64,000 bases of DNA from an uncultured bacterium (GCA_965232985.1 CBDDRC010000012.1:140134-204133), one strand, 5' to 3'; positions 2,081 to 38,684 are shown, numbered from the stretch's first letter. Numbers and translations: made by a program. Notes: generated by a model not told the origin, from the sequence alone.

Positions 2081-3818
<1,738 letters not shown>

Positions 3819-3829
3819 TGGCATGGTAG

Positions 3830-4918
3830 TTGCGCGTCATGGCTGAGCAGCCTGGCAGCGGGATCGCCACTGTCTGCCCATGGCATCGCGTGGCCTGGGC
3901 ATCATTGCAGGCGCGGCACGCAGCGCATGCCTTGCCGCATGCATTGCTGCTGACTGGCGAGGCGGGCACGGGTAAACGCCGCTTCGCCGATGCCTGCGCC
4001 GCCTGGCTGCTGTGTTCGGCACCGGTTGCCGGGCTGGCCTGTGGGCGCTGCAAATCCTGCCTGCTGGTGGCGGCCGGCTCACACCCCGATCACCTGCTGG
4101 TGGTACCGGAGGCGATGCGCGCCGATGCCGATCCCGGGCCGGATCCGGAGTCCGGCAGTCGCAAACGCAAGCCCAGCCGCGACATTCGTGTCGATGAAGT
4201 GCGTGAGCTTATCGGCTTTGCCAGCCGTACTGCCCAGTTCGGTGGCCGCCGGGTGATCGTCATTGATCCAGCGCAGGCGATGAACATGAACGCTGCGAAC
4301 GCCTTGCTCAAAACGCTGGAGGAACCCGGCGCGGGCATGCTGCTGTTGTTGGTATCGGACGCGCCGGCGATGTTGGCCGCCACCGTGCGCTCACGCTGCC
4401 AGCAGATCAGGCTGCCCGCGCCGACCCGCGCCGAGGCGCTGGCGTGGCTGGCACCGCTGGTCGGTGGCGAGGCAAAGGCAACAACATTGCTCGGCGCAGC
4501 AGTGACGCCGATGCGGGCGCTGGCCTTGCGCGATGGTGCGGAAGATTGGGTCGCCCAACGTCCCGTATTGGGGAAGTTGTTGGTGGACGTACTGTGTGGC
4601 ACTGCATCCGCAGTGCGGTTCGCCGAAATGGCGGCGAAGGCTCCTGAGGCGCTGCTGATGGACTGGCTGCCGACGCTGCTGGCTGATGCTGTGCGGCTTG
4701 CCGAAGGGGTACCGGCGGCGCGCCTGCGCAATGGCGATCTTGCTGCTGATCTGCGGCGCGTGGTTGATGCGCGGACGACGCAGCCGCTATTCTTGCTCGG
4801 CGACGACCTGTCGCGACTGCGCCAGCAGTTCCATGCAGGGGCGGGCTTGAGCCGGCCCTTGCTGTGGGAAGAAGTCATGCTTCGCTGGTCACCAAGGCCC
4901 AGGAGCGGGCGCCCATAA
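3830..4918 (+). CDS. holB: DNA polymerase III subunit delta'
   Basis: HALLLTGEAGTGK, CGRCKSC Zn motif, AANALLKTLEEP, TVRSRCQ; lies between tmk and pilZ; start may be ATG 3839. Confidence 0.93.
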   Translation: MRVMAEQPGSGIATVCPWHRVAWASLQARHAAHALPHALLLTGEAGTGKRRFADACAAWLLCSAPVAGLACGRCKSCLLVAAGSHPDHLLVVPEAMRADADPGPDPESGSRKRKPSRDIRVDEVRELIGFASRTAQFGGRRVIVIDPAQAMNMNAANALLKTLEEPGAGMLLLLVSDAPAMLAATVRSRCQQIRLPAPTRAEALAWLAPLVGGEAKATTLLGAAVTPMRALALRDGAEDWVAQRPVLGKLLVDVLCGTASAVRFAEMAAKAPEALLMDWLPTLLADAVRLAEGVPAARLRNGDLAADLRRVVDARTTQPLFLLGDDLSRLRQQFHAGAGLSRPLLWEEVMLRWSPRPRSGRP

Positions 4919-4949
4919 CGCGGCACACAGAAGGCGGGCAATAAACCAG

Positions 4950-5312
4950 ATGAATAGTCCGAAACTCCCTGCGGGTCCTGGCAAGAGCGGCATTCTCTCG
5001 CTGACCATCAAGGACAAGGCCGTGCTGTACGCGGCCTATATGCCCTTCATCCGCAATGGCGGCCTGTTTCTTCCTACCAGTAAACCCTACAAGCTCGGCG
5101 ATGAGGTGTTCATTCTGCTGAGCCTGATGGAAGAGAGTGACAAACTGCCGGTGGCCGGCAAGGTCGTCTGGATTACGCCGCGTGGTGCCGGCGGCAATCG
5201 CGCTGCCGGCATCGGCATCCAGTTCAACGATCAGGACGATACTGCGCGCAAGAAAATCGAGACCTATCTGGCCGGCGCCGAAAAATCGGATCGCCCGACA
5301 CACACCATGTGA
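4950..5312 (+). CDS. pilZ: type IV pilus assembly protein PilZ
   Basis: ILSLTIKDKAVLYAAYMPFIRNGGLF...RPTHTM; holB-pilZ-tatD synteny. Confidence 0.95.
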   Translation: MNSPKLPAGPGKSGILSLTIKDKAVLYAAYMPFIRNGGLFLPTSKPYKLGDEVFILLSLMEESDKLPVAGKVVWITPRGAGGNRAAGIGIQFNDQDDTARKKIETYLAGAEKSDRPTHTM

Positions 5313-5335
5313 GCTGTTCCTGACGTGGATTGTGG

Positions 5336-5367
5336 AAGCCATGAATTGATAGGTTCATGGCTTTTTT
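5336..5367 (+). terminator. rho-independent terminator after pilZ
   Basis: stem AAGCCATGAA/TTCATGGCTT followed by a T-run. Confidence 0.7.
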
Positions 5368-5436
5368 GTTGGGGCGGCTTTTTGAAGCGATTGTTTGAGA
5401 CATTTGTTCGCACCGATAATTTTCTGAGCGGCCAGC

Positions 5437-6237
5437 ATGATCGTCGATTCACACTGTCATCTCGACCGGCTTGAGCTCACGCCTTATGGCGGCGAGCTGT
5501 CGGGTGCGCTCGACGCGGCCCGGGCTGCCGGTATCGGCGCGATGCTCAACGTCAATATCGATCTTGAACATGAGGCCGACGTGCGCGCGATTGCCGAAGC
5601 ACATGCGGATGTGTTTTTTTCGGTAGGCGTGCATCCGTCGGAGCAGGGTGGCGAGGAGCCGACCCTGGAGCGCTTGCTGGCGCTGGCCGCACACCCGAAA
5701 TGCGTGGCAATTGGTGAAACCGGCCTCGATTACCACTGGTGCAAGGGCGACACCGAATGGCAGCGCGAACGGTTTCGCGTGCACATCCGGGCGGCGCGGG
5801 CCTGCGGCAAGCCACTGATTGTCCATACCCGTGAAGCGCGTGCCGATACCATCCGCATCCTTGCTGAGGAAAACGCACAACAGGCCGGCGGCATCATGCA
5901 CTGCTTTACCGAGGATATCGCTACCGCCGAAGCGGCGCTCGCACTCGGGATGCACATCTCCTTCTCGGGCATCGTGACCTTTCGCAATGCCGAGGCGTTG
6001 CGTGCCGTGGCGCGCGCCGTGCCGCTGGAGCGGATACTCGTTGAGACCGATTCACCCTACCTGGCGCCCGCGCCGCATCGCGGCAAGCCGAACGAGCCGC
6101 GCTATGTGGCGGACGTGTGTGCATTCATCGCGCAGTTGCGCGGGGTGAGTATCGAAGAGATGGCCCGCATCACAACCGACAATTTTTTCCGGCTTTTTCC
6201 AACAATTCCATTGCCCGGTTCAACTGCACGTCGGTAA
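5437..6237 (+). CDS. TatD family hydrolase (YcfH-like)
   Basis: DSHCHLD, GVHP, IGETGLDY, HCFTE, VETDSPYLAP. Confidence 0.93.
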   Translation: MIVDSHCHLDRLELTPYGGELSGALDAARAAGIGAMLNVNIDLEHEADVRAIAEAHADVFFSVGVHPSEQGGEEPTLERLLALAAHPKCVAIGETGLDYHWCKGDTEWQRERFRVHIRAARACGKPLIVHTREARADTIRILAEENAQQAGGIMHCFTEDIATAEAALALGMHISFSGIVTFRNAEALRAVARAVPLERILVETDSPYLAPAPHRGKPNEPRYVADVCAFIAQLRGVSIEEMARITTDNFFRLFPTIPLPGSTARR

Positions 6238-7315
6238 GCCAGAAATGCGGTGAGAGGCGAATGCCGCCACCACGTTCGGCGCAGATCACCCCATCGTCTT
6301 TGAGGCAGCGGAATATTGCGGCGTGCGCGCCACTGGCATGGCGGGCCGTAATAATGCCGCTGCAGAACTTTTCTTCGCGGCGCGAGATCAGCGACCAGCC
6401 GGGCAGGGCGGCGATGCCGCGTGCCAGATACCCGGTGTTGGCCAGCACCTGCGCTTCGACGCACGCCATGCCGATCTCTTCGAGCAGCGACAGTGACGCC
6501 GACAGGGCGTGAATGCCGAGCATGTTCGGGCTGCCGCACTCGAAGCGGCGCGCGGACTTTGCCGGTGTCCAGTCGGTGCGATTGTAATCGCCGGCGTGTT
6601 CGGCCATGTGCCAGCCGTATTGTGTCAACGTGAGCGCGTCGCGGGCTTTGGGGGTTGCATAGAAGAGGGCAACGCCTTCCGGGCCGAGCAGCCACTTGTG
6701 GCCATCGGCAATGGCGAAGTCGGCGTGGCTTGCCTGCACGTCGAAGCGCAACGCACCAACCTGCTGTATGGCATCCACACAGAACAGCGTGCCGTTGGCG
6801 CGGCATGCCGCACCCAAGCGGGGCAGATCCAGACGCAGCCCGGTGGCAAACTGCACGGCGCTGATGGCGAGCACCCGCGTGCGCGCATCCAGTTGCGCAA
6901 TCAGTGCGGCTTCCGGGTCTTCGTCAGCCAGCGATACGCATCGCGTGACAACGCCCCGCCCCGCGAGCGCTTCCCAGGCCATGCGATTGGAGGGGAATTC
7001 CTGATCGCTGATGACGACGTTGTCGCCGGACTGCCAACTGAGCCCGGCGGCAACCAGGGAGATGCCTTCGGAGGTATTTTTCAGCAGGGCGATATCGTCG
7101 CCCGATGGCGCGTTGATAAGCCCCCGCAACTGCTCGCGCAAGCGTTTTTCAACCTGCATCCACGCCGGGTAGTGAGCAGCGCCATAGCGGAGGTTTTCAG
7201 CAGCGAACTTACGCACTGCCTCTGCGGTTCGAGCCGGCCAGGGCGCAACCCCGGCATGATTGAGATAGATGATGCCGGGGTCGAGAGGAAATTCGGTGGC
7301 GCAGGAGAGGACCAT
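6170..7315 (-). CDS. class V PLP-dependent aminotransferase / C-S lyase family protein
   Basis: YLNHAGVAP, NTSEG, VDAIQ, DGHKWLLGPEG (PLP lysine), IRLSPHF; 68-nt convergent overlap with tatD. Confidence 0.88.
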   Translation of the reverse strand: MVLSCATEFPLDPGIIYLNHAGVAPWPARTAEAVRKFAAENLRYGAAHYPAWMQVEKRLREQLRGLINAPSGDDIALLKNTSEGISLVAAGLSWQSGDNVVISDQEFPSNRMAWEALAGRGVVTRCVSLADEDPEAALIAQLDARTRVLAISAVQFATGLRLDLPRLGAACRANGTLFCVDAIQQVGALRFDVQASHADFAIADGHKWLLGPEGVALFYATPKARDALTLTQYGWHMAEHAGDYNRTDWTPAKSARRFECGSPNMLGIHALSASLSLLEEIGMACVEAQVLANTGYLARGIAALPGWSLISRREEKFCSGIITARHASGAHAAIFRCLKDDGVICAERGGGIRLSPHFWLTDVQLNRAMELLEKAGKNCRL

Positions 7316-7381
7316 AGTGGCGGACAGGTACTTGTTGGCGGCGGCGGGTGATTATAATGCGGGCCGGGTAGCAGGAGCCTG

Positions 7382-8029
7382 ATGGTCATGGCGGATCTCG
7401 AGAAAGCGGGCCAGAAGGCGCGCGAGTTCAAGCAGCGGGAGACGGAAGTCCTGCAGGCGGCGCTCGAGTTGTTTCTGAGCTTGGGTGAGGATCGGGTGAC
7501 GGTCGAGATGATTGCCGAAAAGGTCGGTATCGGCAAAGGTACGATCTACAAGCACTTCGAAACCAAGGACGAAATCTACCTGTTGCTCATGATCTGCTAC
7601 GAGGAGGAGATGGCGCAGATGTTCCAGCGCATCGAAGATACCCCGGAGCGTAAAGAGCAGCTGGCCAAAGAGTTCTTTCTGTTTCGCATCAAGGATCCGA
7701 AGCGCTACATGCTGTTTGATCGCCTCGAACAGAAGCTCGTAGCGGCGCGTGCGGTGCCGGAAATGCTGGAGCGTCTGCATCGCATCCGTGCATCGAACGC
7801 CGAGAAACTCACCCACATCATCAGTGCCCGCATCAAGGAGGGCCTGCTCGAGGATGTGCCGCCGTATTTCCACGTCTGCTCCGCCTGGGCCCTTGCGCAT
7901 GGTGCCGTTGCGCTGATGCAGTCACAGTTCTACAACCAGGTCATTGAAGACAAGGAAGGCTTTCTCGATTTCCTGCTGCAGACTGGCATCCGCATGGGTA
8001 ATCGTGGCCAGTACCACAAGAAAAAGTGA
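7382..8029 (+). CDS. TetR/AcrR family transcriptional regulator
   Basis: VTVEMIAEKVGIGKGTIYKHFETKDEI helix-turn-helix. Confidence 0.92.
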   Translation: MVMADLEKAGQKAREFKQRETEVLQAALELFLSLGEDRVTVEMIAEKVGIGKGTIYKHFETKDEIYLLLMICYEEEMAQMFQRIEDTPERKEQLAKEFFLFRIKDPKRYMLFDRLEQKLVAARAVPEMLERLHRIRASNAEKLTHIISARIKEGLLEDVPPYFHVCSAWALAHGAVALMQSQFYNQVIEDKEGFLDFLLQTGIRMGNRGQYHKKK

Positions 8030-8586
8030 TGGCCGGCAAACTGTTCGCCCAGGTTGAATCACTGCTGCAGAGTGGCGGCAGTAAATTGCCGCCTGTGCAG
8101 TCTTGGCACCCGCCATTTTCCGGTGACATCGATATCCATATTGCCCGCGACGGCAACTGGTACCACGAAGGCGCGCCCATGACGCGTGCGGCCATCGTGC
8201 GCCTGTTCGCCTCCATCCTGCGGCGCGAGGGCGACGAGTATTTTCTGGTTACGCCGGTCGAGAAGTGGCGCATCAGGGTCGAAGATGTGCCGTTCATTGC
8301 CGTGGATGTCGAGGCAATGGGGGAGGGCGTGGACGCCGAGCTCGTGTTCCGTACCAACGTTGGCGATCTGGTGCATGCCAATGCGCTGCATCCGTTGCGG
8401 GTGCAGACCGATCCGGTCAGTGGCGCGCCGTCGCCTTACGTGATGGTCCGTCATGGTCTTGAGGCGCGGATTGCCCGCAGCGTTTTTTATCGATTGGTAG
8501 AGAGTGCGGAAGCGGTTGGCGCTGACGAGGGCACCTTGTATGGAGTTCACAGCGGCGGCCTGTTTCATCCTTTGGGCGCAGGTTGA
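8026..8586 (+). CDS. DUF1285 family protein
   Basis: PPVQSWHPPFSGDIDIHIARDGNWYHEG, LVTPVEKWRIRVEDVPF. Confidence 0.85.
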   Translation: MMAGKLFAQVESLLQSGGSKLPPVQSWHPPFSGDIDIHIARDGNWYHEGAPMTRAAIVRLFASILRREGDEYFLVTPVEKWRIRVEDVPFIAVDVEAMGEGVDAELVFRTNVGDLVHANALHPLRVQTDPVSGAPSPYVMVRHGLEARIARSVFYRLVESAEAVGADEGTLYGVHSGGLFHPLGAG

Positions 8587-9851
8587 GCGCCCGTCAACCA
8601 CCATGTCTGCATCTCGCCCTTGCCCTTGATGTATACCGGGCCGCGGGGTTCGCAGCTGAAATCTTCGCCGAGTCGCGCTTTCGTTTCCGCACCCAACTGA
8701 ATGCGACCGGGCTCGCCGTGCGATTCCATGCGGCTCGCAGTATTCACCGTGTCGCCCCACACGTCGTAGCTGAAGCGCAGCGCGCCGATCACGCCGGCGA
8801 TCACCGGGCCGGTGTGCATGCCCACGCGCAGATTGACATCGATGCTGGTTTCCTTGCGCAGCGTGCGCACGTCGTCGAGCAGTGCGAGCGCCAGCCGGGC
8901 GATCACCTGTGCGTGGTCGGCGCGGGCATTGGGTGCTCCTGAAATAACCATGTATGCATCGCCAATGGTCTTGATCTTCTCGGCGCCAGCGGCAGTGACC
9001 CTGGCGTCGAAGCGTGAAAATATTTTCTCCAGCAGCGACACGACGACTTCCGGTTCCTGCTGTGCGGCCCAGGGCGTGAAGCCGGCGATATCGGCGAACA
9101 ACACTGTCACTTCCGGGTGACGGTTGGCGATCATGCGGTCGCCGGCCCGCAGTTCGTCGGCGATTTTGCGCGGTAACACGGCATACAGCAGGCGATCGGA
9201 CGATTCGCGGGCGCCGATGAGTTCCATTTCGCTGCGCAACACTTCGCGTTCGAAGACGCCGAGGATCAGCAGCACGCTGGCCAGCGCCAGCAACGCGTTG
9301 CCGATGCGGGCGCCGGCCAGCAGCCAGTCCGGCATGCTGGAGAAATCGACGTGGGATGCGCCGGCGAAGCCCAGGCCATAGATCAGCGTCAGTATCGGCA
9401 CGCCGACGAACAGGGCTTGTTGTCGGGGTTCTTCGGCGGTGTATAGCACGCGGGCCAGTGCCGCAGTCACCAGCGTAAATGCGGCAACATTGAGTGCCGA
9501 GCCGGAGAGCCAGAGCAGGGCAGCAATCTGGAATTCCAGTGTAACCATCAATAACAGGCGCGCGGCATGATGCTTGTCCAGCGCTGCCATCCACATGCCG
9601 AGAGTAAAGAAAACGGCACAGCCAGTATTGACGATGATGACCGGCAAGGTGCCCTGTGGATCAAGCGTCAGCGAAATAATGATGTAGGGCAGGGTGAGGA
9701 TGGCCGCCACGCCCAGTGCGTAGCGCGCCAGCCTGGCCCGGCGGACATGCGAGGTTTCGGTAGATCGTGGCGGTGCCCTGAAGAGCTCCAGCCAGAACTC
9801 GCGGTCGGGTCGGCGCAGGTACTGGCGCAGGTCGATGGGTTTGCGGGCCAT
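8565..9851 (-). CDS. membrane-anchored class III adenylate/guanylate cyclase
   Basis: about 6 hydrophobic segments, then VLFADIAGFT, KIKTIGDAYM, YDVWGDTVNTASRMES; start could extend to 9884. Confidence 0.9.
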   Translation of the reverse strand: MARKPIDLRQYLRRPDREFWLELFRAPPRSTETSHVRRARLARYALGVAAILTLPYIIISLTLDPQGTLPVIIVNTGCAVFFTLGMWMAALDKHHAARLLLMVTLEFQIAALLWLSGSALNVAAFTLVTAALARVLYTAEEPRQQALFVGVPILTLIYGLGFAGASHVDFSSMPDWLLAGARIGNALLALASVLLILGVFEREVLRSEMELIGARESSDRLLYAVLPRKIADELRAGDRMIANRHPEVTVLFADIAGFTPWAAQQEPEVVVSLLEKIFSRFDARVTAAGAEKIKTIGDAYMVISGAPNARADHAQVIARLALALLDDVRTLRKETSIDVNLRVGMHTGPVIAGVIGALRFSYDVWGDTVNTASRMESHGEPGRIQLGAETKARLGEDFSCEPRGPVYIKGKGEMQTWWLTGAQPAPKG

Positions 9852-9897
9852 GGTTGTTGCTTTGGGCACGGTAGGGTTGGGCAACCATAGCAGGAAA

Positions 9898-9929
9898 AGA
9901 AAAAGGCGCTGTTGTCAGCGCCTTTTTCT
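9898..9929 (-). terminator. rho-independent (possibly bidirectional) terminator downstream of ETF-QO
   Basis: AGAAAAAGGCGCTG-ttgt-CAGCGCCTTTTTCT perfect inverted repeat. Confidence 0.8.
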
Positions 9930-9964
9930 GTGCGGATGTGCCGGTTTCCGTCCGACCCGGCGGC

Positions 9965-11623
9965 TCACATATTGGGATAATTCGGCCCGCCGCCGCCTTC
10001 GGGCACTACCCAGTTGATGTTTTGGGCCGGATCCTTGATGTCGCAGGTTTTGCAGTGCACGCAGTTCTGCGCGTTGATCTGGAAGCGCTTCGAACCGTCG
10101 GTGTTGTCGACCACTTCGTACACGCCGGCCGGGCAGTAACGTTGCGCCGGCTCGTCGTACAGCGGCAGGTTTTTGGCGATCGGAATGGAAGGATCCTGCA
10201 ACTGCAGGTGGCAGGGCTGGTCTTCCTCATGGTTGGTGTTGGAGAGGAACACCGAGCTCAACTTGTCGAAACTGATGACGCCATCGGGTTTTGGATAAGT
10301 GGGTTTCGTGCATTCGGCCGCGGGCTTGAGAGTGGCGTGGTCGGGAATGGGATCTTGCAGCGTGAAGGGCAGCTTGCCCTTGAAGATTTTCTGGTCGATG
10401 AACGCATAAGCTGAACCGAGGAAAGTTCCGAACTTGTGCATCGCCGGGCCAACGTTGCGGGCGGCGAACAATTCCTCTGCGGCCCAACTGTTGCGAAAGG
10501 CTTCCGGATAGGTATTGAGTTCCTTGCCGCCGGTGTCGCCGTTGCTCACGGCAGCGAAAACCGCTTCCGCCGCCAGCATGCCGGTTTTCATCGCGGTGTG
10601 GCTGCCCTTGATGCGCGGGAAGTTCATGAAGCCGGCATCGTCACCGGCGAGCATACCGCCGGGGAATACCAGTTTCGGAATCGCCTGCCAGCCGCCCTTG
10701 TTGATCGCGCGCGCACCATAGGAAATGCGCTTGCCGCCGGCAAGGTATGCCTTGATGAGCGGATGCGTCTTCCAGCGCTGCATTTCGTCGAATGGCGACA
10801 GATGCGGGTTGGAATAGGACAGATCGGTAATGAGGCCGAGCGTAACCTGACCGTTTTCCAGGTGATAGAGGAAACCACCGCCCGAGGCGCCGGGTGCCGT
10901 CAGCGGCCAGCCCATGGTGTGGATGACCAGACCGGGCTTGTGTTTGGTCGGGTCGATATCCCACAGCTCCTTGATGCCGAGGGCGTAATGCTGCGTACCC
11001 GAATTTTTCTCCAGGCCGAAGTGTTTCAGCAGTTGCTTACCGAGATGACCGCGGCAGCCTTCGGCGAAAATCGTGTACTTCGCGTGCAGTTCCATGCCCG
11101 GCGCGTAGCTGGCCTTTTTCTCGCCGTTGTGGCCGATACCCATATCGCCGGTGGCGATACCCTTCACCGAGCCGTCGTCGTTGAACAGCACTTCGGTGGC
11201 CGCGAAGCCCGGGAACACCTGGATGCCCAGCGCCTCGGCCTGCTGCCCCAGCCAGCGGCAGACGTTGCCCAGGGAAATCACCTGATTGCCGTCGTTGTGC
11301 AGGCTGGGTGGCACGAAGAAATGGGGAACCTCGATGCCTTTCTCCGGCGAGGTCATGAACCAGACCTGATCGCCGCTGACGGGCGCCTTGAACGGGCAGC
11401 CCAGTTCCTGCCAGTTCGGGAAGAGCTCGTGCATCGCCCGCGGGTCCATGACTGCCCCGGAAAGGATATGGGCGCCGACCTCGGAGCCTTTCTCGACGAC
11501 GACGACGTTCAGTTCGGTGCCTTTTGCCTGGGCCAGCTGGCCCAGACGGCAGGCGGCGGCCAGGCCGGATGGACCGGCGCCGACGATGACAACGTCGACT
11601 TCCATTGCTTCGCGATGCGACAT
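9965..11623 (-). CDS. electron transfer flavoprotein-ubiquinone oxidoreductase
   Basis: VGAGPSGL FAD motif, KGSEVGAHILSGA, YCPAGVYE and NCVHCKTCDIKDP 4Fe-4S cysteines; divergent from etfBA. Confidence 0.96.
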   Translation of the reverse strand: MSHREAMEVDVVIVGAGPSGLAAACRLGQLAQAKGTELNVVVVEKGSEVGAHILSGAVMDPRAMHELFPNWQELGCPFKAPVSGDQVWFMTSPEKGIEVPHFFVPPSLHNDGNQVISLGNVCRWLGQQAEALGIQVFPGFAATEVLFNDDGSVKGIATGDMGIGHNGEKKASYAPGMELHAKYTIFAEGCRGHLGKQLLKHFGLEKNSGTQHYALGIKELWDIDPTKHKPGLVIHTMGWPLTAPGASGGGFLYHLENGQVTLGLITDLSYSNPHLSPFDEMQRWKTHPLIKAYLAGGKRISYGARAINKGGWQAIPKLVFPGGMLAGDDAGFMNFPRIKGSHTAMKTGMLAAEAVFAAVSNGDTGGKELNTYPEAFRNSWAAEELFAARNVGPAMHKFGTFLGSAYAFIDQKIFKGKLPFTLQDPIPDHATLKPAAECTKPTYPKPDGVISFDKLSSVFLSNTNHEEDQPCHLQLQDPSIPIAKNLPLYDEPAQRYCPAGVYEVVDNTDGSKRFQINAQNCVHCKTCDIKDPAQNINWVVPEGGGGPNYPNM

Positions 11624-29828: not shown

Positions 29829-29844
29829 TGGCAAGCCTCTTGCT
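29829..29844 (+). promoter_or_regulatory. sigma-54 (-24/-12) promoter for the solute-binding protein gene
   Basis: TGGCAAGCCTCTTGCT versus consensus TGGCAC-N5-TTGCW; preceded by an AT-rich tract (about 29775-29820) that could bind IHF. Confidence 0.75.
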
Positions 29845-29909
29845 CTGATTGTTGTGTGCGCTTGCCGTCCGTCGTGGCCTCGCGGCCCGGGGACTTACAG
29901 CATTCGCAA

Positions 29910-30011
29910 GGCGTCTAGGGTTCCGGCCGGTTCGAGATGAAGCGGTGCTGGTCCGAGAGTCGCCGGCCTGCCGGGATGGCGGGTTGCACGGAGGGATAAA
30001 AGCCCGGGAGA
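29910..30011 (+). ncRNA. guanidine-I (ykkC-yxkD) riboswitch #1
   Basis: GGCGTCTAGGGTTCCG...GCTGGTCCGAGAGTCGCC...CACGGAGGGATAAAAGCCCGGGAGA has all ykkC conserved blocks; upstream of the SBP gene. Confidence 0.93.
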
Positions 30012-30076
30012 TCCGCGAACGTGTCGACAGGCGTCTACAGCCCCGCTCCCCACGGAGCCCACTTGAGGATCGACCC

Positions 30077-31194: not shown

Positions 31195-31440
31195 TGAGCG
31201 GCGGATTTTCCGCCGGCAAACACGTCATGAAAGGTTCACGGAGGCAGTGCAGAGTCAGGCGGTTGAGCGGTTAAGGAAATCGACGTTGCATTCCGGTCAA
31301 CGCACGCAGGGAAGCGTGGCGATGACGAGTGCCGGCTCACGGGCCTTTGCGCCCCAGGGGATGCAGCGACGCGGTTCACCTGGAACCGGACAGGGACGAG
31401 CAAGCAGCGAAGGGGCGCCCATGAAGGGCGCCCTTTTTTT
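31195..31440 (+). ncRNA. candidate GGA-rich small RNA or structured 3' UTR (Csr/Rsm sponge-like)
   Basis: 8 GGA motifs in about 200 nt, including the hairpin CACGC-AGGGAA-GCGTG; ends in a strong terminator; 5' end uncertain. Confidence 0.35.
31410..31440 (+). terminator. rho-independent terminator
   Basis: AAGGGGCGCCC-atgaa-GGGCGCCCTTTTTTT. Confidence 0.88.
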
Positions 31441-31448
31441 GCTTTACG

Positions 31449-32345
31449 TTACAGCTGCCTGTCCGGCCGCCACGCCTCCAGCACCGCCGCCGACAAGATC
31501 AGCGCGCCACCAAACCACTCCATCGGTGCCATCGTTTCCCCGGCCCACCAGGCGGCAGTAATCACCGCTGTCAGCAATTCCATGATGATCAGGATCGACG
31601 CGCGGCCGGCTTCCAGGTGCGTCACGCCCCATTGGGTGCCGGCGGTAGCGACGAGCAGCAACAAGCCGAGCGCGACGGTGTACGCCCAGGTGATCGGCGG
31701 TATGCCGTGCGGCATCGATTGCACGCCGGCGCCAATCAGCAGCGCCGCAATCACCGCGCAGCCGACAAACATCATCGCGACCTTGCTGGGCACCGGCGCG
31801 ATCGATGCGGCGCGGAAGCAGAGGTTGTTCATCGCAAACCCGAAGCCGGAAACGATGGCGAGCACGTCGATCCAGGAGGGCGGCGCCGCCAGCACGGCGG
31901 GGCCGCCGAGAATGAGGAACGCGCCACTCAGGGCAAGCACGACGGCAAGCGCGCGCTGCGCGTCGATTTTCTCGCCGAGAAAAATCTTGCCGCCGAGCAC
32001 GCCCCAGACCGGCAACAGGTAGAACAGCACCATCACCCGCACGACTTCGCCGTTCATCAGGCTGTAGGCAAAGGCGATGTTGGCAATGCCGCCCAGGAAA
32101 AAAATCAGCAGCATGAAGCGCGCTTCCGGTCGCCAGCGCGCGAACTGCATGATCAGTACCGGCGCGAGCAGCAGCGCGAGCGTGCCGTAGGCAACGAGAA
32201 TCTGCGGCAGCCCGGTAACGCCGGCAGTGGCGAGCGCCTTCATCGGCCACCAGGTCGTGCCCCAGAGCACGGAGGCGGCGAGCAAGGCAAGAATGGGCAG
32301 GCGGGCGCTGTGCGCTGTGGAGCCGCTCTTTGGCGATATCTGCAT
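31449..32345 (-). CDS. DMT/EamA family transporter
   Basis: about 10 hydrophobic segments, LWGTTWWPMK, LFYLLPVW..LGGKIFLGEK, ASILIIMELL; last gene of the four-gene operon. Confidence 0.9.
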   Translation of the reverse strand: MQISPKSGSTAHSARLPILALLAASVLWGTTWWPMKALATAGVTGLPQILVAYGTLALLLAPVLIMQFARWRPEARFMLLIFFLGGIANIAFAYSLMNGEVVRVMVLFYLLPVWGVLGGKIFLGEKIDAQRALAVVLALSGAFLILGGPAVLAAPPSWIDVLAIVSGFGFAMNNLCFRAASIAPVPSKVAMMFVGCAVIAALLIGAGVQSMPHGIPPITWAYTVALGLLLLVATAGTQWGVTHLEAGRASILIIMELLTAVITAAWWAGETMAPMEWFGGALILSAAVLEAWRPDRQL

Positions 32346-32371
32346 GACGGGAAGCGGCAGCCTTCAGGTTT

Positions 32372-33232
32372 TCAGGCGGACCGGCGACTCTGTGCCTCGG
32401 TCCAACGCGAAAAGTGTACCCGCTCGGTGCCTGCCATCCAGCGATTGATTTCCCACAGGTCAGCCACCGGGATGCGCGTGAACGGCAGTTCCTGCAGGTA
32501 GCCGTCGGGGCCGAATTCCGGCGTCATGGTGATCACCTGCCTGTCCTGTTGCGCCATTGCCGCCCACAGGATTTCCCACCAGTGCTGGTGGGCGTGCAGC
32601 GCCGCTGCATATTCCGGCGCGGCCGGGTGGGGAACCTGTGGGCCCTGGTCGTAACCGACGCGGGCATGGATGTGGTGTGCCTGCGGTGCCAGTTGCACGA
32701 TGGTGTCGATCTCGGTGTCGAGCAATCGTTCGCAGACCACACACCAGTGGCTGAAGTCAAAGGTGAAGCGCAGTTGCGGGATTGCCCGCGCGAAATCGGC
32801 GGTGATCCAGGGGTTGTACAGCGAGCGCGAGCGGTGCGTCTCGAAGCTGATGACGAGTGATTCGTGCTCGGCCAGTGCTATCGCTGCGCGGAAAAAACGC
32901 AGCGACGCAGTAAACGGCCAGGCGTCGCAGCCGCCGATGCAGGTGATGAACTGCGGGTTCAGTTCGCGCGCCCAGGCGAGCCGCTGCGCGAGCGAGAGCA
33001 GGTGGTCGTCGACACTGGCGCGCCGGTTCGGTACGTAGCTGCCGGCGGTGGTGATCTCGGCGATGTAGAGCAGGCCGTAGCGATCGAGTGCGGCAGCCAG
33101 TGCGGCGCGCTCTTCGGCGGTTTCCGGTATCTGGCCTTCAAGGCCCTGGAAACCGTTGGCCACGGCTTCGGCGGCAATCGTGTCGATATCGCCGCTGGCG
33201 CCCCACAGCGTCCGGAACATCCGCAATTCCAT
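32372..33232 (-). CDS. sugar-phosphate isomerase/epimerase-like TIM-barrel protein (xylose isomerase-like / AP endonuclease 2 fold)
   Basis: FRTLWG, FETHRSR, DFSHWCVVCERLL, HIHARVG, TPEFGPDGY putative metal ligands; starts 2 nt after the upstream stop. Confidence 0.85.
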   Translation of the reverse strand: MELRMFRTLWGASGDIDTIAAEAVANGFQGLEGQIPETAEERAALAAALDRYGLLYIAEITTAGSYVPNRRASVDDHLLSLAQRLAWARELNPQFITCIGGCDAWPFTASLRFFRAAIALAEHESLVISFETHRSRSLYNPWITADFARAIPQLRFTFDFSHWCVVCERLLDTEIDTIVQLAPQAHHIHARVGYDQGPQVPHPAAPEYAAALHAHQHWWEILWAAMAQQDRQVITMTPEFGPDGYLQELPFTRIPVADLWEINRWMAGTERVHFSRWTEAQSRRSA

Positions 33233-33234
33233 GG

Positions 33235-34032
33235 TCACTCCCGCGGCACAGGAAATCGGTCTCGGGCCCGGAAAAATTCCATGTCGTGATTGGGCCACAG
33301 GTCGGCGCCTTCATGGACTGCCAGTGTTTTCAGTTTGCGAATGCTGGTGAGTGCAAGGTCGGTGCGGTCCTGCCAGCACAGGCCCGGTGCGACTTCGTCG
33401 CGCAGGTTCTCGATCAAGTCGGCAGCATCGCCGCAGAGCAGGATCGGTGATCCCTTTGGTAATTCGATCAGCAACGACAGGTGTCCGGCAGTGTGACCAG
33501 GTGTCTCGATCGCGTGCACGCCGTCGCAGAGCGTGTATTCGGCGCATTGCACGCACCAGAGCACCGGATGGCTGCCATGGTCTTCGCGGAAGTCGTGGGC
33601 GAAGTAGGCGCTGTCGGCCGGTTCACGGGCGGCGTCGAGTTCTTTCTCATGGACATGCACATCGGCGTGGGCGAATTCGTGCAGGCCGCCGGCGTGGTCG
33701 AAATGCAGGTGGCTGCAGATGATGCAGTCGACATCCTTTGCATCGAGCCCGAGCTGTGCGAGCCGCGCCGGCAGGCGTTGTTCGTCGGTCACGGTCGGCG
33801 GGCCGAAGGCGAAGTCCGGCGTTGCGTAGAAGCGGGCGCGCAGTGCCGGGTCGTTTACCTTGCGGTAGTCGCAGCCGACGTCGTACAGGATGCGGCCGTT
33901 GTTCGTCTCGATGAGGTACGCGAGGATCGGCGCCTCGATGATTGAACCCGCATCGCGATCACGCGTCGACAACGATTTGTCGTAGCGGTGGGTGCCGACC
34001 AGCAGTGGCCAGAATTTCATTACGGAGGTCAC
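33235..34032 (-). CDS. metallo-beta-lactamase-fold hydrolase, N-acyl-homoserine lactonase family
   Basis: ILYDVG, SHLHFDHAGG (HxHxDH), TPGHTAGH, CGDAA, PNHD; start GTG 34032 or ATG 34020. Confidence 0.9.
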   Translation of the reverse strand: MTSVMKFWPLLVGTHRYDKSLSTRDRDAGSIIEAPILAYLIETNNGRILYDVGCDYRKVNDPALRARFYATPDFAFGPPTVTDEQRLPARLAQLGLDAKDVDCIICSHLHFDHAGGLHEFAHADVHVHEKELDAAREPADSAYFAHDFREDHGSHPVLWCVQCAEYTLCDGVHAIETPGHTAGHLSLLIELPKGSPILLCGDAADLIENLRDEVAPGLCWQDRTDLALTSIRKLKTLAVHEGADLWPNHDMEFFRARDRFPVPRE

Positions 34033-34065
34033 GTTGGGCTGGTCCGCTGCATCAGTGCGTGATCT

Positions 34066-35076
34066 TTAGTGCGTGGTCAGAAAGGAAACGCCGTCGACGC
34101 CGATGAATTCGCGGCCGCGCTCGGGGTAGGGGATTTTTTCGAGGCCCATGTCGGCGGGATCGGCATTCAGCAGGCGCCGGGTGCGAAAACGGTGATAGGC
34201 GCGCAACTGATTGGCGAAGGGGATCGACTGGCCGGTATCGTCGCCGTAGATTTCGCGCTGCAGCGCCGGCAGCCGGTGCCACGGCTGGTTGGGTTTGTCG
34301 TGATGGACGTTGTGGTAGCCGAAATTCAGCGTGAACAGGTTCAGCCACGGATGGCGCACGGAATGCAGGTTGGTGAAGGTATTGCGGTGTTCCCAGGCGG
34401 CATCGTAAGCGGGTTTTGCCGGGCGTTCGGCGTCGAGACGTTCGTCCACGGCGTAGGTGTGCTGAAACGCGTCCATGAAGCGCAGTACATGCAGCATCAG
34501 GAAATACGCCAGCGGGTAGAGTAGCAGCACACGCGGCGCGTACAGGGTGAGCAGGCCGAACAGTGTGGCGCGTATGGCGAGCGTAACGGCAACATGCAGG
34601 CGGCGATGCCGGCGCGGTGCGTACGTGAATGGCAGCACAATCACCAGCAGGTGCATGGCGAGGTCGAAAGCCGGGATGTATAGCCATTCGAGTGCGTGCA
34701 GGATTTTCACAAGGTGCGGCTGGCGGGCCAGCGCGGGCCGATAGTCGAAGGCGACCACATCAGCACGATCCACATGGTGGCGAAAATGTTTGTGGCGCAC
34801 GTCTGCGTACGTGGCATAACAGCCGCCGCACAACCACAGCAGCACCTTGCCAACGCGGGCATTGCCCGCGTTGGTGTCGAACAGCGTGTTGTGCGCGCAC
34901 TCATGCACAAGATAGGCGGCAATGATCATGGCGTGGCCGAGCAGCAGCACACCGGCGAGGTTTGCGGCCAGCGCGTCGCGGGTGATCAGCAGGAGGCCGA
35001 GTGCGTAGCCCCCGAAGGCATAGCCGAAGGCGAGCAGGTTGGGTTGTCGGCTGTCGGGATATTTGCAGTGCAGCAT
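34066..35076 (-). CDS. membrane fatty-acid-desaturase-superfamily di-iron enzyme
   Basis: His boxes HECAH, HFRHH and HNVHH plus TM segments; ATG 35076 lies 11 nt after the riboswitch P2 hairpin. Confidence 0.9.
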   Translation of the reverse strand: MLHCKYPDSRQPNLLAFGYAFGGYALGLLLITRDALAANLAGVLLLGHAMIIAAYLVHECAHNTLFDTNAGNARVGKVLLWLCGGCYATYADVRHKHFRHHVDRADVVAFDYRPALARQPHLVKILHALEWLYIPAFDLAMHLLVIVLPFTYAPRRHRRLHVAVTLAIRATLFGLLTLYAPRVLLLYPLAYFLMLHVLRFMDAFQHTYAVDERLDAERPAKPAYDAAWEHRNTFTNLHSVRHPWLNLFTLNFGYHNVHHDKPNQPWHRLPALQREIYGDDTGQSIPFANQLRAYHRFRTRRLLNADPADMGLEKIPYPERGREFIGVDGVSFLTTH

Positions 35077-35087
35077 GGCAAGTCCGG

Positions 35088-35139
35088 GCAGGTCGTCCCG
35101 CAACAAGGCAAACCTGACGCGGGTCGTCCCGCGTCAGGT
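35088..35139 (-). ncRNA. guanidine-II (mini-ykkC) riboswitch #1, leader of the desaturase operon
   Basis: minus strand: ACCTGACGCGGG-ACGA-CCCGCGTCAGGT, linker TTGCCTTGTT, GCGGG-ACGA-CCTGC; two GC-rich hairpins with ACGR loops just before the RBS and ATG. Confidence 0.9.
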
Positions 35140-35160
35140 GTTGGGTATCGGCGGAGCCGC

Positions 35161-35176
35161 AGCAAGAAGTCTGCCA
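35161..35176 (-). promoter_or_regulatory. sigma-54 promoter for the desaturase operon
   Basis: minus strand TGGCAGACTTCTTGCT; predicted +1 near 35150, about 11 nt before riboswitch P1. Confidence 0.78.
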
Positions 35177-35239: not shown

Positions 35240-35319
35240 CGCACTGCTATGGTGCGCTGCGGTGATCGTCTGCGCCGGGGGTGCGCACTGCGCTGGCGCG
35301 GCCGGCACCAGCATCGCGC
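35240..35319. promoter_or_regulatory. NtrC-like enhancer boxes shared by the divergent sigma-54 promoters
   Basis: cGCAC-TGCTATG-GTGCg at 35240-35256 (GCAC-N7-GTGC); near-matches GCAC-N7-GCGC at 35285-35299 and 35305-35319. Confidence 0.6.
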
Positions 35320-35350: not shown

Positions 35351-35366
35351 TGGCACGCATCCTGCT
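35351..35366 (+). promoter_or_regulatory. sigma-54 promoter for the permease-ATPase-cgdAB-carboxylase-atzF operon
   Basis: TGGCACGCATCCTGCT. Confidence 0.75.
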
Positions 35367-35430
35367 GTTGCAAGATCTGCAGGCGATGGGGTTACGGCAG
35401 CGAGCGCGTCGTGATCACGGCGCAAAAACA

Positions 35431-35528
35431 GGCGACTAGGGTTCCGGCTCGCGTTTCGCGAGCGACTGGTCCGAGAGTTGCCGGCCTCCGGAACAGGAGG
35501 TGACACGGAGGGATAAAAGCCCGGGAGA
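35431..35528 (+). ncRNA. guanidine-I (ykkC-yxkD) riboswitch #2
   Basis: GGCGACTAGGGTTCCG...ACTGGTCCGAGAGTTGCC...CACGGAGGGATAAAAGCCCGGGAGA; the last 25 nt are identical to riboswitch #1. Confidence 0.93.
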
Positions 35529-35598
35529 CAGGATGCGCAGGAGTGCGTCCGCGCGTCTTCCGTCGCCCAGGTTCCGTCAGTCACCCGGAGGAGTGCAT

Positions 35599-38639: not shown

Positions 38640-38684
38640 CCTGTCGGGACGGCCCGCAGGGTTAAAAAAGGCAGGACGACCTGC
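38640..38684 (+). ncRNA. guanidine-II (mini-ykkC) riboswitch #2, internal to the operon, leader of the carboxylase
   Basis: CCTGTCGGG-ACGG-CCCGCAGG, linker GTTAAAAAAG, GCAGG-ACGA-CCTGC, then GCGGGA and ATGATGATG. Confidence 0.88.

Follow-up and report, generated by a model that had tools for sequence, protein, structure and literature searches.

The stretch of DNA analysed here, 64,000 nucleotides (nt) from an uncultured bacterium (GCA_965232985.1 CBDDRC010000012.1:140134-204133), is referred to below as the window. On its minus strand, at 31449-35176, lies an operon of four genes coding for a desaturase-like membrane oxygenase (DES), a lactonase-like hydrolase (MBL), a TIM-barrel protein (TIM) and an EamA-type transporter (EamA), and the question raised by this locus is what such proteins do among genes for the carboxylation of guanidine. 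A first reading made by a model from the DNA alone (the sequence-only reading) had placed the operon under a guanidine-II riboswitch and a sigma-54 promoter, and had suggested that it may release guanidine from a substituted guanidino compound. The operon was found to be, very probably, a guanidine-regulated part of guanidine nitrogen use. Tentatively, its function is proposed to be the release of free guanidine from a substituted one by oxidative dealkylation, and for this proposal doubt still somewhat outweighs confidence.

The promoter motif, the riboswitch and the four genes are as follows.

35161..35176, minus strand: -24/-12 motif TGGCAG-N5-TTGCT (TGGCAGACTTCTTGCT), 25 nt upstream of the riboswitch, located by pattern search
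35088..35135, minus strand: guanidine-II (mini-ykkC) riboswitch, consisting of hairpin 1 (ACGA loop), a 14-nt linker and hairpin 2 (ACGA loop), located with Rfam RF01068
34066..35076, minus strand: DES, a membrane di-iron oxygenase of the FA_desaturase family, 336 aa, assigned by PF00487 and histidine boxes
33235..34032, minus strand: MBL, a lactonase-type hydrolase of the metallo-beta-lactamase fold, 265 aa, assigned by PF00753
32372..33232, minus strand: TIM, a divergent xylose-isomerase-like (AP_endonuc_2) TIM-barrel protein, 286 aa, assigned by the PF01261 matches of its relatives and by its fold
31449..32345, minus strand: EamA, a protein of the drug/metabolite-transporter superfamily with 10 transmembrane segments, 298 aa, assigned by two matches to PF00892

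By their coordinates the four open reading frames (ORFs) follow one another on the minus strand in the order DES-MBL-TIM-EamA with gaps of 33, 2 and 26 nt. The positions given by the sequence-only reading for the riboswitch, promoter, ATG and gene gaps were all exact. Its gene families held as well, through the matches to PF00487, PF00753 and PF00892 and, for the TIM barrel, through the PF01261 of the relatives together with the fold.

The window was searched with the Rfam covariance model of mini-ykkC, and RF01068 matched 35135-35088(-) above its gathering score (40.9 bits versus 32; E 1e-4 for the whole window) over model positions 1-48 of 48. Guanidine-II-like elements were then gathered from related loci using a regular expression for the loops, and 41 were aligned; the loop columns of this alignment are invariant by selection, the stems are not. 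Stem positions were paired in 86.9% of cells, compared with 71.8% in shuffles and 31-53% with slid partners; 10 of the 14 pairs had changes on both sides, and the covariation score was reached by 0 of 500 shuffles. A covariance model built from the same alignment (R1) was run on the window and 85 loci. It returned 51 matches at E<=1.2e-4, 49 of them outside the window, and scored the 35088-35135 element at 48.6 bits. The 49 outside matches lay directly 5' of DES (17), CgdA (3), a 2-oxoglutarate (2OG) dioxygenase (2) or the carboxylase gene (27); of the last group, 14 were assigned by script and 13 by hand, 11 of these via an MF(K/N)K start and two (L082, L053; loci are numbered L) by position between CgdB and the carboxylase gene.

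The DES start was placed at the ATG at 35076, 11 nt past the second hairpin, which matches the conserved N-terminus of 11 homologues. A TTG at 35106 was rejected, being inside the aptamer and not fitting that N-terminus. The minimum-free-energy fold of the leader has CCCGG, just ahead of the ATG, base-paired to the 5' half of hairpin 2, and the competing helix so predicted is of the kind expected of a translational ON switch. A second guanidine-II-like element is found at 38641-38684(+), between cgdB and the carboxylase gene and directly 5' of the carboxylase ATG (38691/38697). It scores 23.7 bits in Rfam, below the gathering score of 32, and 45.3 bits with R1, and its placement agrees with the cgdB-GdII-gca layout published for V. 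boliviensis (excerpts of PMC12508155).

The promoter motif TGGCAGACTTCTTGCT has GG at -24, GC at -12 and the spacing of TGGCAC-N5-TTGC. The looser pattern TGGC-N8-TGCW occurs 20 times in the window versus 10.0 +/- 3.1 expected, and is also present ahead of both guanidine-I aptamers of the cluster, at 29829-29844(+) and 35351-35366(+); sigma-54 transcription and a riboswitch thus seem to go together in each of the three riboswitch-led units. Among 20 loci with an orthologous guanidine-II element, 12 have the strict -24/-12 motif <=160 nt upstream of it, and the number rises to 17 when up to 2 mismatches are allowed; about 0.5 strict matches would be expected by chance from the density in the window. 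The genome of the window (G000; genomes are numbered G and contigs C) contains rpoN (PF04552, 230 bits). The type of promoter, as the sole basis, suggests that the operon would be expressed under nitrogen limitation.

On one flank of the operon a guanidine-I riboswitch (29904-30012) is followed by an NMT1-type binding protein. On the other, a guanidine-I riboswitch (35425-35529) leads into a permease, an ATPase, CgdA and CgdB (two DUF1989 genes), guanidine/urea carboxylase (GC) and allophanate hydrolase (AH), as assigned by Rfam and gene labels. The four-gene operon is thus placed between two guanidine-I-led units.

The conservation of this arrangement was surveyed with a TIM alignment scan using one genome per species. 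It yielded 326 loci, of which 80 were kept and used for the counts; the ORFs of these loci were clustered and were labelled via the window proteins and Pfam. Cgd, GC or AH genes or NMT1-type ATP-binding cassette (ABC) transporter genes were present at 67 of the 80 TIM loci. Most of the other 13 are short contigs or have a guanidine riboswitch, namely guanidine-I at L068 (Rfam), guanidine-II at L062, L028 and L075 (R1), and an element at L056 detected by regular expression only. DES was present in 47 loci, EamA in 45, MBL in 30 and all three in 24, TIM being in all by design of the search. The gene orders included DES-MBL-TIM-EamA as in the window, DES-TIM with or without EamA, and TIM alone, divergent from the transporter and convergent with DES-MBL-EamA; in Campylobacterota (L015, L027) one strand carries CgdA-CgdB-DES-MBL-GC-TIM-EamA-AH co-linearly. 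The carriers include sulfur oxidisers, clam symbionts, Campylobacterota and Verrucomicrobiota; Thioalkalivibrio sulfidiphilus and Sinimarinibacterium are among those in culture.

Three further claims of the sequence-only reading could be judged from these results. The control of the operon by a riboswitch and a sigma-54 promoter is supported by the RF01068 match, the covariation, the motif conserved in 12 of 20 loci and the presence of rpoN. Its location within a guanidine carboxylase cluster was confirmed by the flanking guanidine-I units and the CgdAB, GC and AH genes. The survey of homologues, with guanidine-pathway or ABC transporter genes at 67 of 80 TIM loci and synteny across phyla, strongly supports a place for the operon in guanidine metabolism.

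Of 41 genomes related to that of the window, 12 have Cgd genes, 6 have TIM and 5 have DES; within the genus, each of the three is found in 3 of 8 genomes, the same 3 in every case. The module appears to be an optional extension of the pathway because it is present in just 5 of the 12 Cgd-positive relatives, in one of which TIM is a fragment with a stop codon. A C-terminal TIM remnant (residues 211-282, with one TAA inside) was also observed between cgdA and DES at L006 (G014:C24), 1501-1716; DES there retains its guanidine-II leader, and TIM looks like a decaying copy. As a separate observation, genes of the creatininase family (20 of 80 loci), glutamine-synthetase-like genes (20 of 80) and NikR-like genes (18 of 80) recur between the ABC transporter and cgdA (e.g. 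L031:3028-3819(-), L010:11773-13155(+) and L034:502-990(-)). The window has none of the three, and the ABC transporter in loci that do have them is just ~30% identical to that of the window.

The proteins themselves were compared with family, sequence and structure databases. DES matched PF00487 at 112.7 bits (gathering score 29.7; E 3e-32), and its HECAH, HKHFRHH and HNxHH boxes and a C-terminal His were invariant in 12 sequences. It reached no NCBIfam equivalog cut-off and had no sequence match in the PDB. With the DES model (predicted local distance difference test score, pLDDT, 72), Foldseek found nothing at E<=0.001; AlkB was the only named solved enzyme of the desaturase family among the weak fold matches (8sbb/8f6t, template modelling (TM) score 0.39-0.41).

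TIM matched no Pfam family at E<=0.01 by hmmscan and no PDB sequence, while many of its relatives carry a precomputed PF01261 assignment; more than 3400 proteins match TIM, and the Atlas clusters containing it carry the name sugar phosphate isomerase/epimerase. Its AlphaFold model (pLDDT 81.5, predicted TM score 0.85) gave D-tagatose 3-epimerase, C-glycoside deglycosidase and UlaE as top Foldseek matches (E 1e-9 to 1e-8, TM score 0.55-0.68). At least 500 PDB chains were matched at E<=0.001, and all among the matches listed belong to the xylose-isomerase-like superfamily (TM score 0.52-0.68, 11-17% identity). In 81 sequences, 77 positions were >=95% conserved. They include many Trp, Asp and Glu residues and the set E131/D159/H187-H189/E239, which we take to be the metal-site pattern of the xylose-isomerase-like fold.

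MBL matched PF00753 (E 2e-19) and, in the PDB, AiiA (E 1e-27), and its translation contains the motif HLHFDH. Its best NCBIfam rows were both below cut-off, 4-pyridoxolactonase at 144.6 bits (cut-off 325) and AiiA at 130.7 bits (cut-off 375). An equivalog assignment to either was rejected with scores so far under the cut-offs, and MBL remains a lactonase-like hydrolase of the metallo-beta-lactamase fold. EamA matched PF00892 in two stretches (E 2e-18; 67.4 bits versus 28.2) and TIGR00950 at 41.9 bits, under the cut-off of 230.

The oxygenase that adjoins TIM changes from taxon to taxon, being DES in 47 loci, a Rieske oxygenase in 6 and a 2OG/Fe(II) dioxygenase in L028, L075 and L088. The Rieske loci (L065, L071, L079, L081, L083, L085; e.g. 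L083:4756-7831) contain an FGE-sulfatase-like protein and lie next to carboxylase genes; the order is a polysaccharide-deacetylase-type hydrolase (often), the Rieske oxygenase, sometimes a short-chain dehydrogenase/reductase, the FGE-sulfatase-like protein and TIM. They are labelled Verrucomicrobiota, Verrucomicrobiia, Phragmitibacter and Bifidobacteriaceae (the last probably mis-binned), and Rfam at gathering scores found no riboswitch in L065, L083 and L085. At L028 and L075 a DIOX_N/2OG-Fe(II) dioxygenase lies between a guanidine-II element and TIM; when the L028 dioxygenase was used as query, the matches formed a broad isopenicillin-N-synthase-like family, and the best 120 included none from Vreelandella. 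At L088 (G027:C1), 6325-9400, TIM, an NMT1-type binding protein and a 2OG/Fe(II) dioxygenase are situated behind a perfect TGGCAC-N5-TTGCT, and the Cgd genes of G027 are elsewhere on the chromosome. A lipid desaturase cannot be replaced by soluble enzymes of the Rieske or 2OG type; what the oxygenases have in common would therefore be that they oxygenate a small molecule, and TIM is the partner that stays the same.

A clue to the product comes from L087 (G019:C7), 3681-10095, where TIM-DES is immediately preceded, on its own strand, by frmA and frmB. By NCBIfam equivalogs, FrmA is an S-(hydroxymethyl)glutathione dehydrogenase (694 bits, cut-off 544) and FrmB an S-formylglutathione hydrolase (411 bits, cut-off 282). 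TIM and DES of G019 are more distant (43% and 34% identity), and a GbcA-like Rieske N-demethylase, below its cut-off, lies opposite. R1 detected no guanidine-II element at L087 or L088. The gene neighbourhood in this one genome points to formaldehyde, and hence to demethylation. As a side observation, strong FrmB matches were found in 3 of 20 genomes with MBL at the locus versus 8 of 16 with a DES-TIM locus lacking it (one of these 8, divided between two contigs, is under cut-off); the trend is suggestive but confounded by genome completeness, by related genomes and by MBL possibly being elsewhere, and was not used as evidence.

From the foregoing we infer a reaction, an order of steps, a substrate and roles for MBL and EamA. 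The explanation that best fits the whole, an accessory guanidine module with dealkylation by DES and TIM, is held at a little less than an even chance. The operon would serve as an accessory module of the guanidine-carboxylase nitrogen-assimilation cluster and would be transcribed from the sigma-54 promoter. Guanidine or a small mono-substituted guanidine would bind the guanidine-II aptamer and so open the translation of DES. DES, with O2, would hydroxylate the carbon adjoining a guanidino nitrogen, and TIM, as a metal-dependent enzyme, would resolve the hydroxylated intermediate to guanidine and an aldehyde, which for a methyl group would be formaldehyde. The freed guanidine would then enter the adjacent GC, CgdAB and AH enzymes. 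MBL and EamA may perform an auxiliary step, for which ring opening, deacylation, uptake or export are guesses. The release of guanidine from a substituted guanidine, as proposed by the sequence-only reading, is favoured by the interchangeable oxygenases, by frmAB in one genome and by the precedent of the enzymes MgdH and MgdL considered below, but is still a step that we infer.

The substrate could be methylguanidine, or a larger or cyclic guanidine; the latter is possible because a lactonase-type hydrolase is often present and creatininase-family genes occur in 20 of the 80 loci. In a bolder form, rather unlikely in its entirety, the oxygenase and TIM would be a widespread, unrecognised two-enzyme N-dealkylation system for methylated or carboxymethylated guanidines, mostly in chemolithoautotrophic and groundwater bacteria. 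TIM would represent a new class of hemiaminal (hydroxyalkyl-guanidine) lyase, DES the first membrane oxygenase of the desaturase family acting on a guanidinium compound, and MBL would open or deacylate a cyclic or acylated precursor. Methylguanidine, guanidinoacetate and breakdown products of creatine and creatinine would be examples of substrates.

Several observations weigh against dealkylation by DES and TIM under guanidine control. No electron-donor gene for DES is found within the operon. By gene order, 27 of the 80 loci have TIM but no oxygenase gene; although short contigs account for many of them, L043, L044, L059 and L060 have several kb on both sides, and L055 retains MBL, TIM and EamA without DES. 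These loci suggest that TIM may act without DES. The guanidine-II elements of L028 and L075 were identified by R1 alone and are under the Rfam gathering score. The frmAB neighbourhood is confined to G019, where no Cgd gene was found. Neither frmA nor frmB was found in G000, which is 99.9% complete, and a formaldehyde by-product would for that reason need another sink there. Of the 42 DES genes complete at the 5' end, 16 have their own guanidine-II element and 26 have no known riboswitch of their own; 8 of the 26 are inside guanidine-II-led operons and 1 (L068) follows a guanidine-I. Rfam found no riboswitch on the DES side of 8 tested loci.

The same loci bear on the strongest rival, itself unlikely, in which the substrate would be guanidine itself, an intermediate of the carboxylase pathway or a side product of it, TIM being the core enzyme and the oxygenase optional. 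O2-dependent N-hydroxylation, or salvage of aldehyde adducts such as N-(hydroxymethyl)guanidine, would be examples. Such a role would account for TIM beside ABC and Cgd/GC genes with ample flanks and no oxygenase (the four loci just named), for L055, and for the ~35 of 80 loci in which TIM immediately adjoins the binding-protein gene. N-(Hydroxymethyl)guanidine is, moreover, unusually stable, with a half-life >1 h (excerpts of PMC12508155). According to the same excerpts, however, the carboxylase pathway is chemically complete alone, and a second guanidine-consuming route would be redundant. The recruitment of three unrelated types of oxygenase beside TIM suggests that oxygenation matters, and the genomes seeming to lack an oxygenase may have one elsewhere, where no search was made. 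The other route named by the sequence-only reading, modification or export of guanidine, may also apply.

Quite improbable is a guanidine stress response in which EamA would export guanidinium or a derivative, DES would remodel lipids against the chaotropic cation, and MBL and TIM would be unrelated housekeeping proteins. DES does belong to the Pfam fatty-acid desaturase family and is so named throughout the database annotations, and EamA is in the same transporter superfamily lineage as the small multidrug resistance exporters. Exporters are common targets of guanidine-II riboswitches (excerpts of PMC7266159), but the module adjoins assimilation genes, not exporters, behind a sigma-54 promoter. 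Soluble Rieske or 2OG oxygenases take the place of DES beside TIM in other taxa, and EamA is absent from 35 and MBL from 50 of the 80 loci, TIM being constant by search design. Concentrations of 44-93 uM are far below chaotropic levels. These are the affinities of the riboswitches as given in excerpts of PMC12508155. That an unrelated operon for sugar or lactone catabolism was inserted in the guanidine cluster, with a fortuitous riboswitch match, has next to no chance and is largely refuted by synteny: database annotations do read sugar phosphate isomerase/epimerase and lactonase-like hydrolase, but the element exceeds the Rfam gathering score and is retained, with covariation, 5' of DES in 17 loci of different lineages, 67 of 80 TIM loci have guanidine-pathway or ABC genes, and among the recurrent genes of the loci there is none for a sugar kinase, a dehydrogenase or a sugar transporter.

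Two further features border the operon.

31409..31437, no strand assigned: GC-rich hairpin between the convergent EamA and binding-protein genes, located by terminator scan
35241..35255, no strand assigned: GCAC-N7-GTGC palindrome between two divergent sigma-54 promoters, a possible activator site, located by pattern search

The hairpin has a T-run after it on the plus strand and an A-run before it on the minus strand, and was scored by the scan as a plus-strand terminator; it is likely the end of the operon, and likely also used by the minus-strand transcript. The GCAC-N7-GTGC pattern is not enriched in the window (4 found versus 3.6 expected), and only the position of the palindrome hints at an activator site. 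Contigs with DNA near-identical to 31449-35176 come from 20 metagenome runs in 10 studies, with groundwater, soil or mine tailings as labels; none was found in RNA runs.

The natural sources of guanidine and the guanidino compounds usable by microbes are an open question (excerpts of PMC12186494 and PMC12623156). A search of full-text literature gave no link of a fatty-acid desaturase, a xylose-isomerase-like or sugar-phosphate-isomerase protein, an MBL hydrolase or EamA to guanidine riboswitches or the carboxylase pathway, older gene-association tables and supplements being outside the search. The 'desaturase' in the excerpts of PMC12186494, PMC11410670 and PMC12623156 was rejected as referring to NapI, not DES, and that in the excerpt of PMC2211319 as a target of a B12 riboswitch and not of guanidine. 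Within the literature searched, the module at 326 species-level loci uses enzyme families without known guanidine chemistry. Identification of its substrate would extend the nitrogen cycle by one step and would give a function to a large cluster mis-annotated as 'sugar phosphate isomerase' and 'fatty acid desaturase'. It would also be a second, independent case of the specificities of guanidine-I and guanidine-II dividing labour in one cluster.

Compared with known systems, the regulatory parts of the operon are conventional: the riboswitch is an ordinary RF01068 member and the promoter is of the ordinary sigma-54 type. Like other members of RF01068, the element has two ACGR-loop hairpins with a short linker just ahead of a start codon. 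Its downstream gene is a desaturase-family oxygenase, whereas the RF01068 targets named in excerpts of PMC7266159, PMC12186494 and PMC12508155 are exporters and carboxylase-pathway genes.

The PF01261 barrels (ketose 3-epimerases, UlaE, C-glycoside deglycosidases and AsbF) share with TIM the fold and a similar conserved Glu/Asp/His/Glu set, and some of them are lyases or dehydratases; TIM differs in having guanidine genes and oxygenases as neighbours and not sugar genes. DES shares the PF00487 family and the histidine boxes with the alkane hydroxylase AlkB and with MocD of rhizopine catabolism. AlkB and MocD hydroxylate non-lipid substrates. Points of difference are that the operon of the window contains no gene for a rubredoxin or ferredoxin partner and that DES resembles AlkB only weakly in fold.

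The closest parallel is with V. boliviensis, whose guanidine-carboxylase operon, according to excerpts of PMC12508155, carries the hydroxylase MgdH (a 2OG dioxygenase) and the lyase MgdL, which together demethylate methylguanidine via the stable hemiaminal N-(hydroxymethyl)guanidine. In the same source, the guanidine-II aptamer 5' of gca binds guanidine and methylguanidine equally, and guanidine-I rejects methylguanidine. The accessory system was published in 2025 and is confined to a few halophiles. In both systems an extra oxygenase and a second enzyme are embedded in a riboswitch-controlled guanidine-carboxylase cluster, guanidine-I being located at the transporter and operon start and guanidine-II farther in; this division of labour is repeated in the window, with guanidine-I on the transporter units and guanidine-II on the oxygenase operon. 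The enzymes are of different kinds. The oxygenase of the window is a membrane di-iron protein of PF00487 and MgdH a 2OG/Fe(II) dioxygenase, while the second enzyme of the window is a 286-aa TIM barrel in which no conserved D-x-R was seen, in contrast to the catalytic D49/R51 pair of MgdL (excerpts of PMC12508155). More than 3400 proteins match TIM, compared with the 216 homologues of MgdL reported there. The operon has, in addition, two further genes (MBL and EamA), its own promoter and its own guanidine-II element. It may be read as a non-homologous counterpart of MgdH/MgdL, the two being set apart by their descriptions and not by sequence comparison. In kind both are accessory funnels that lead into the carboxylase pathway; the operon is made of completely different parts and is far more widespread.

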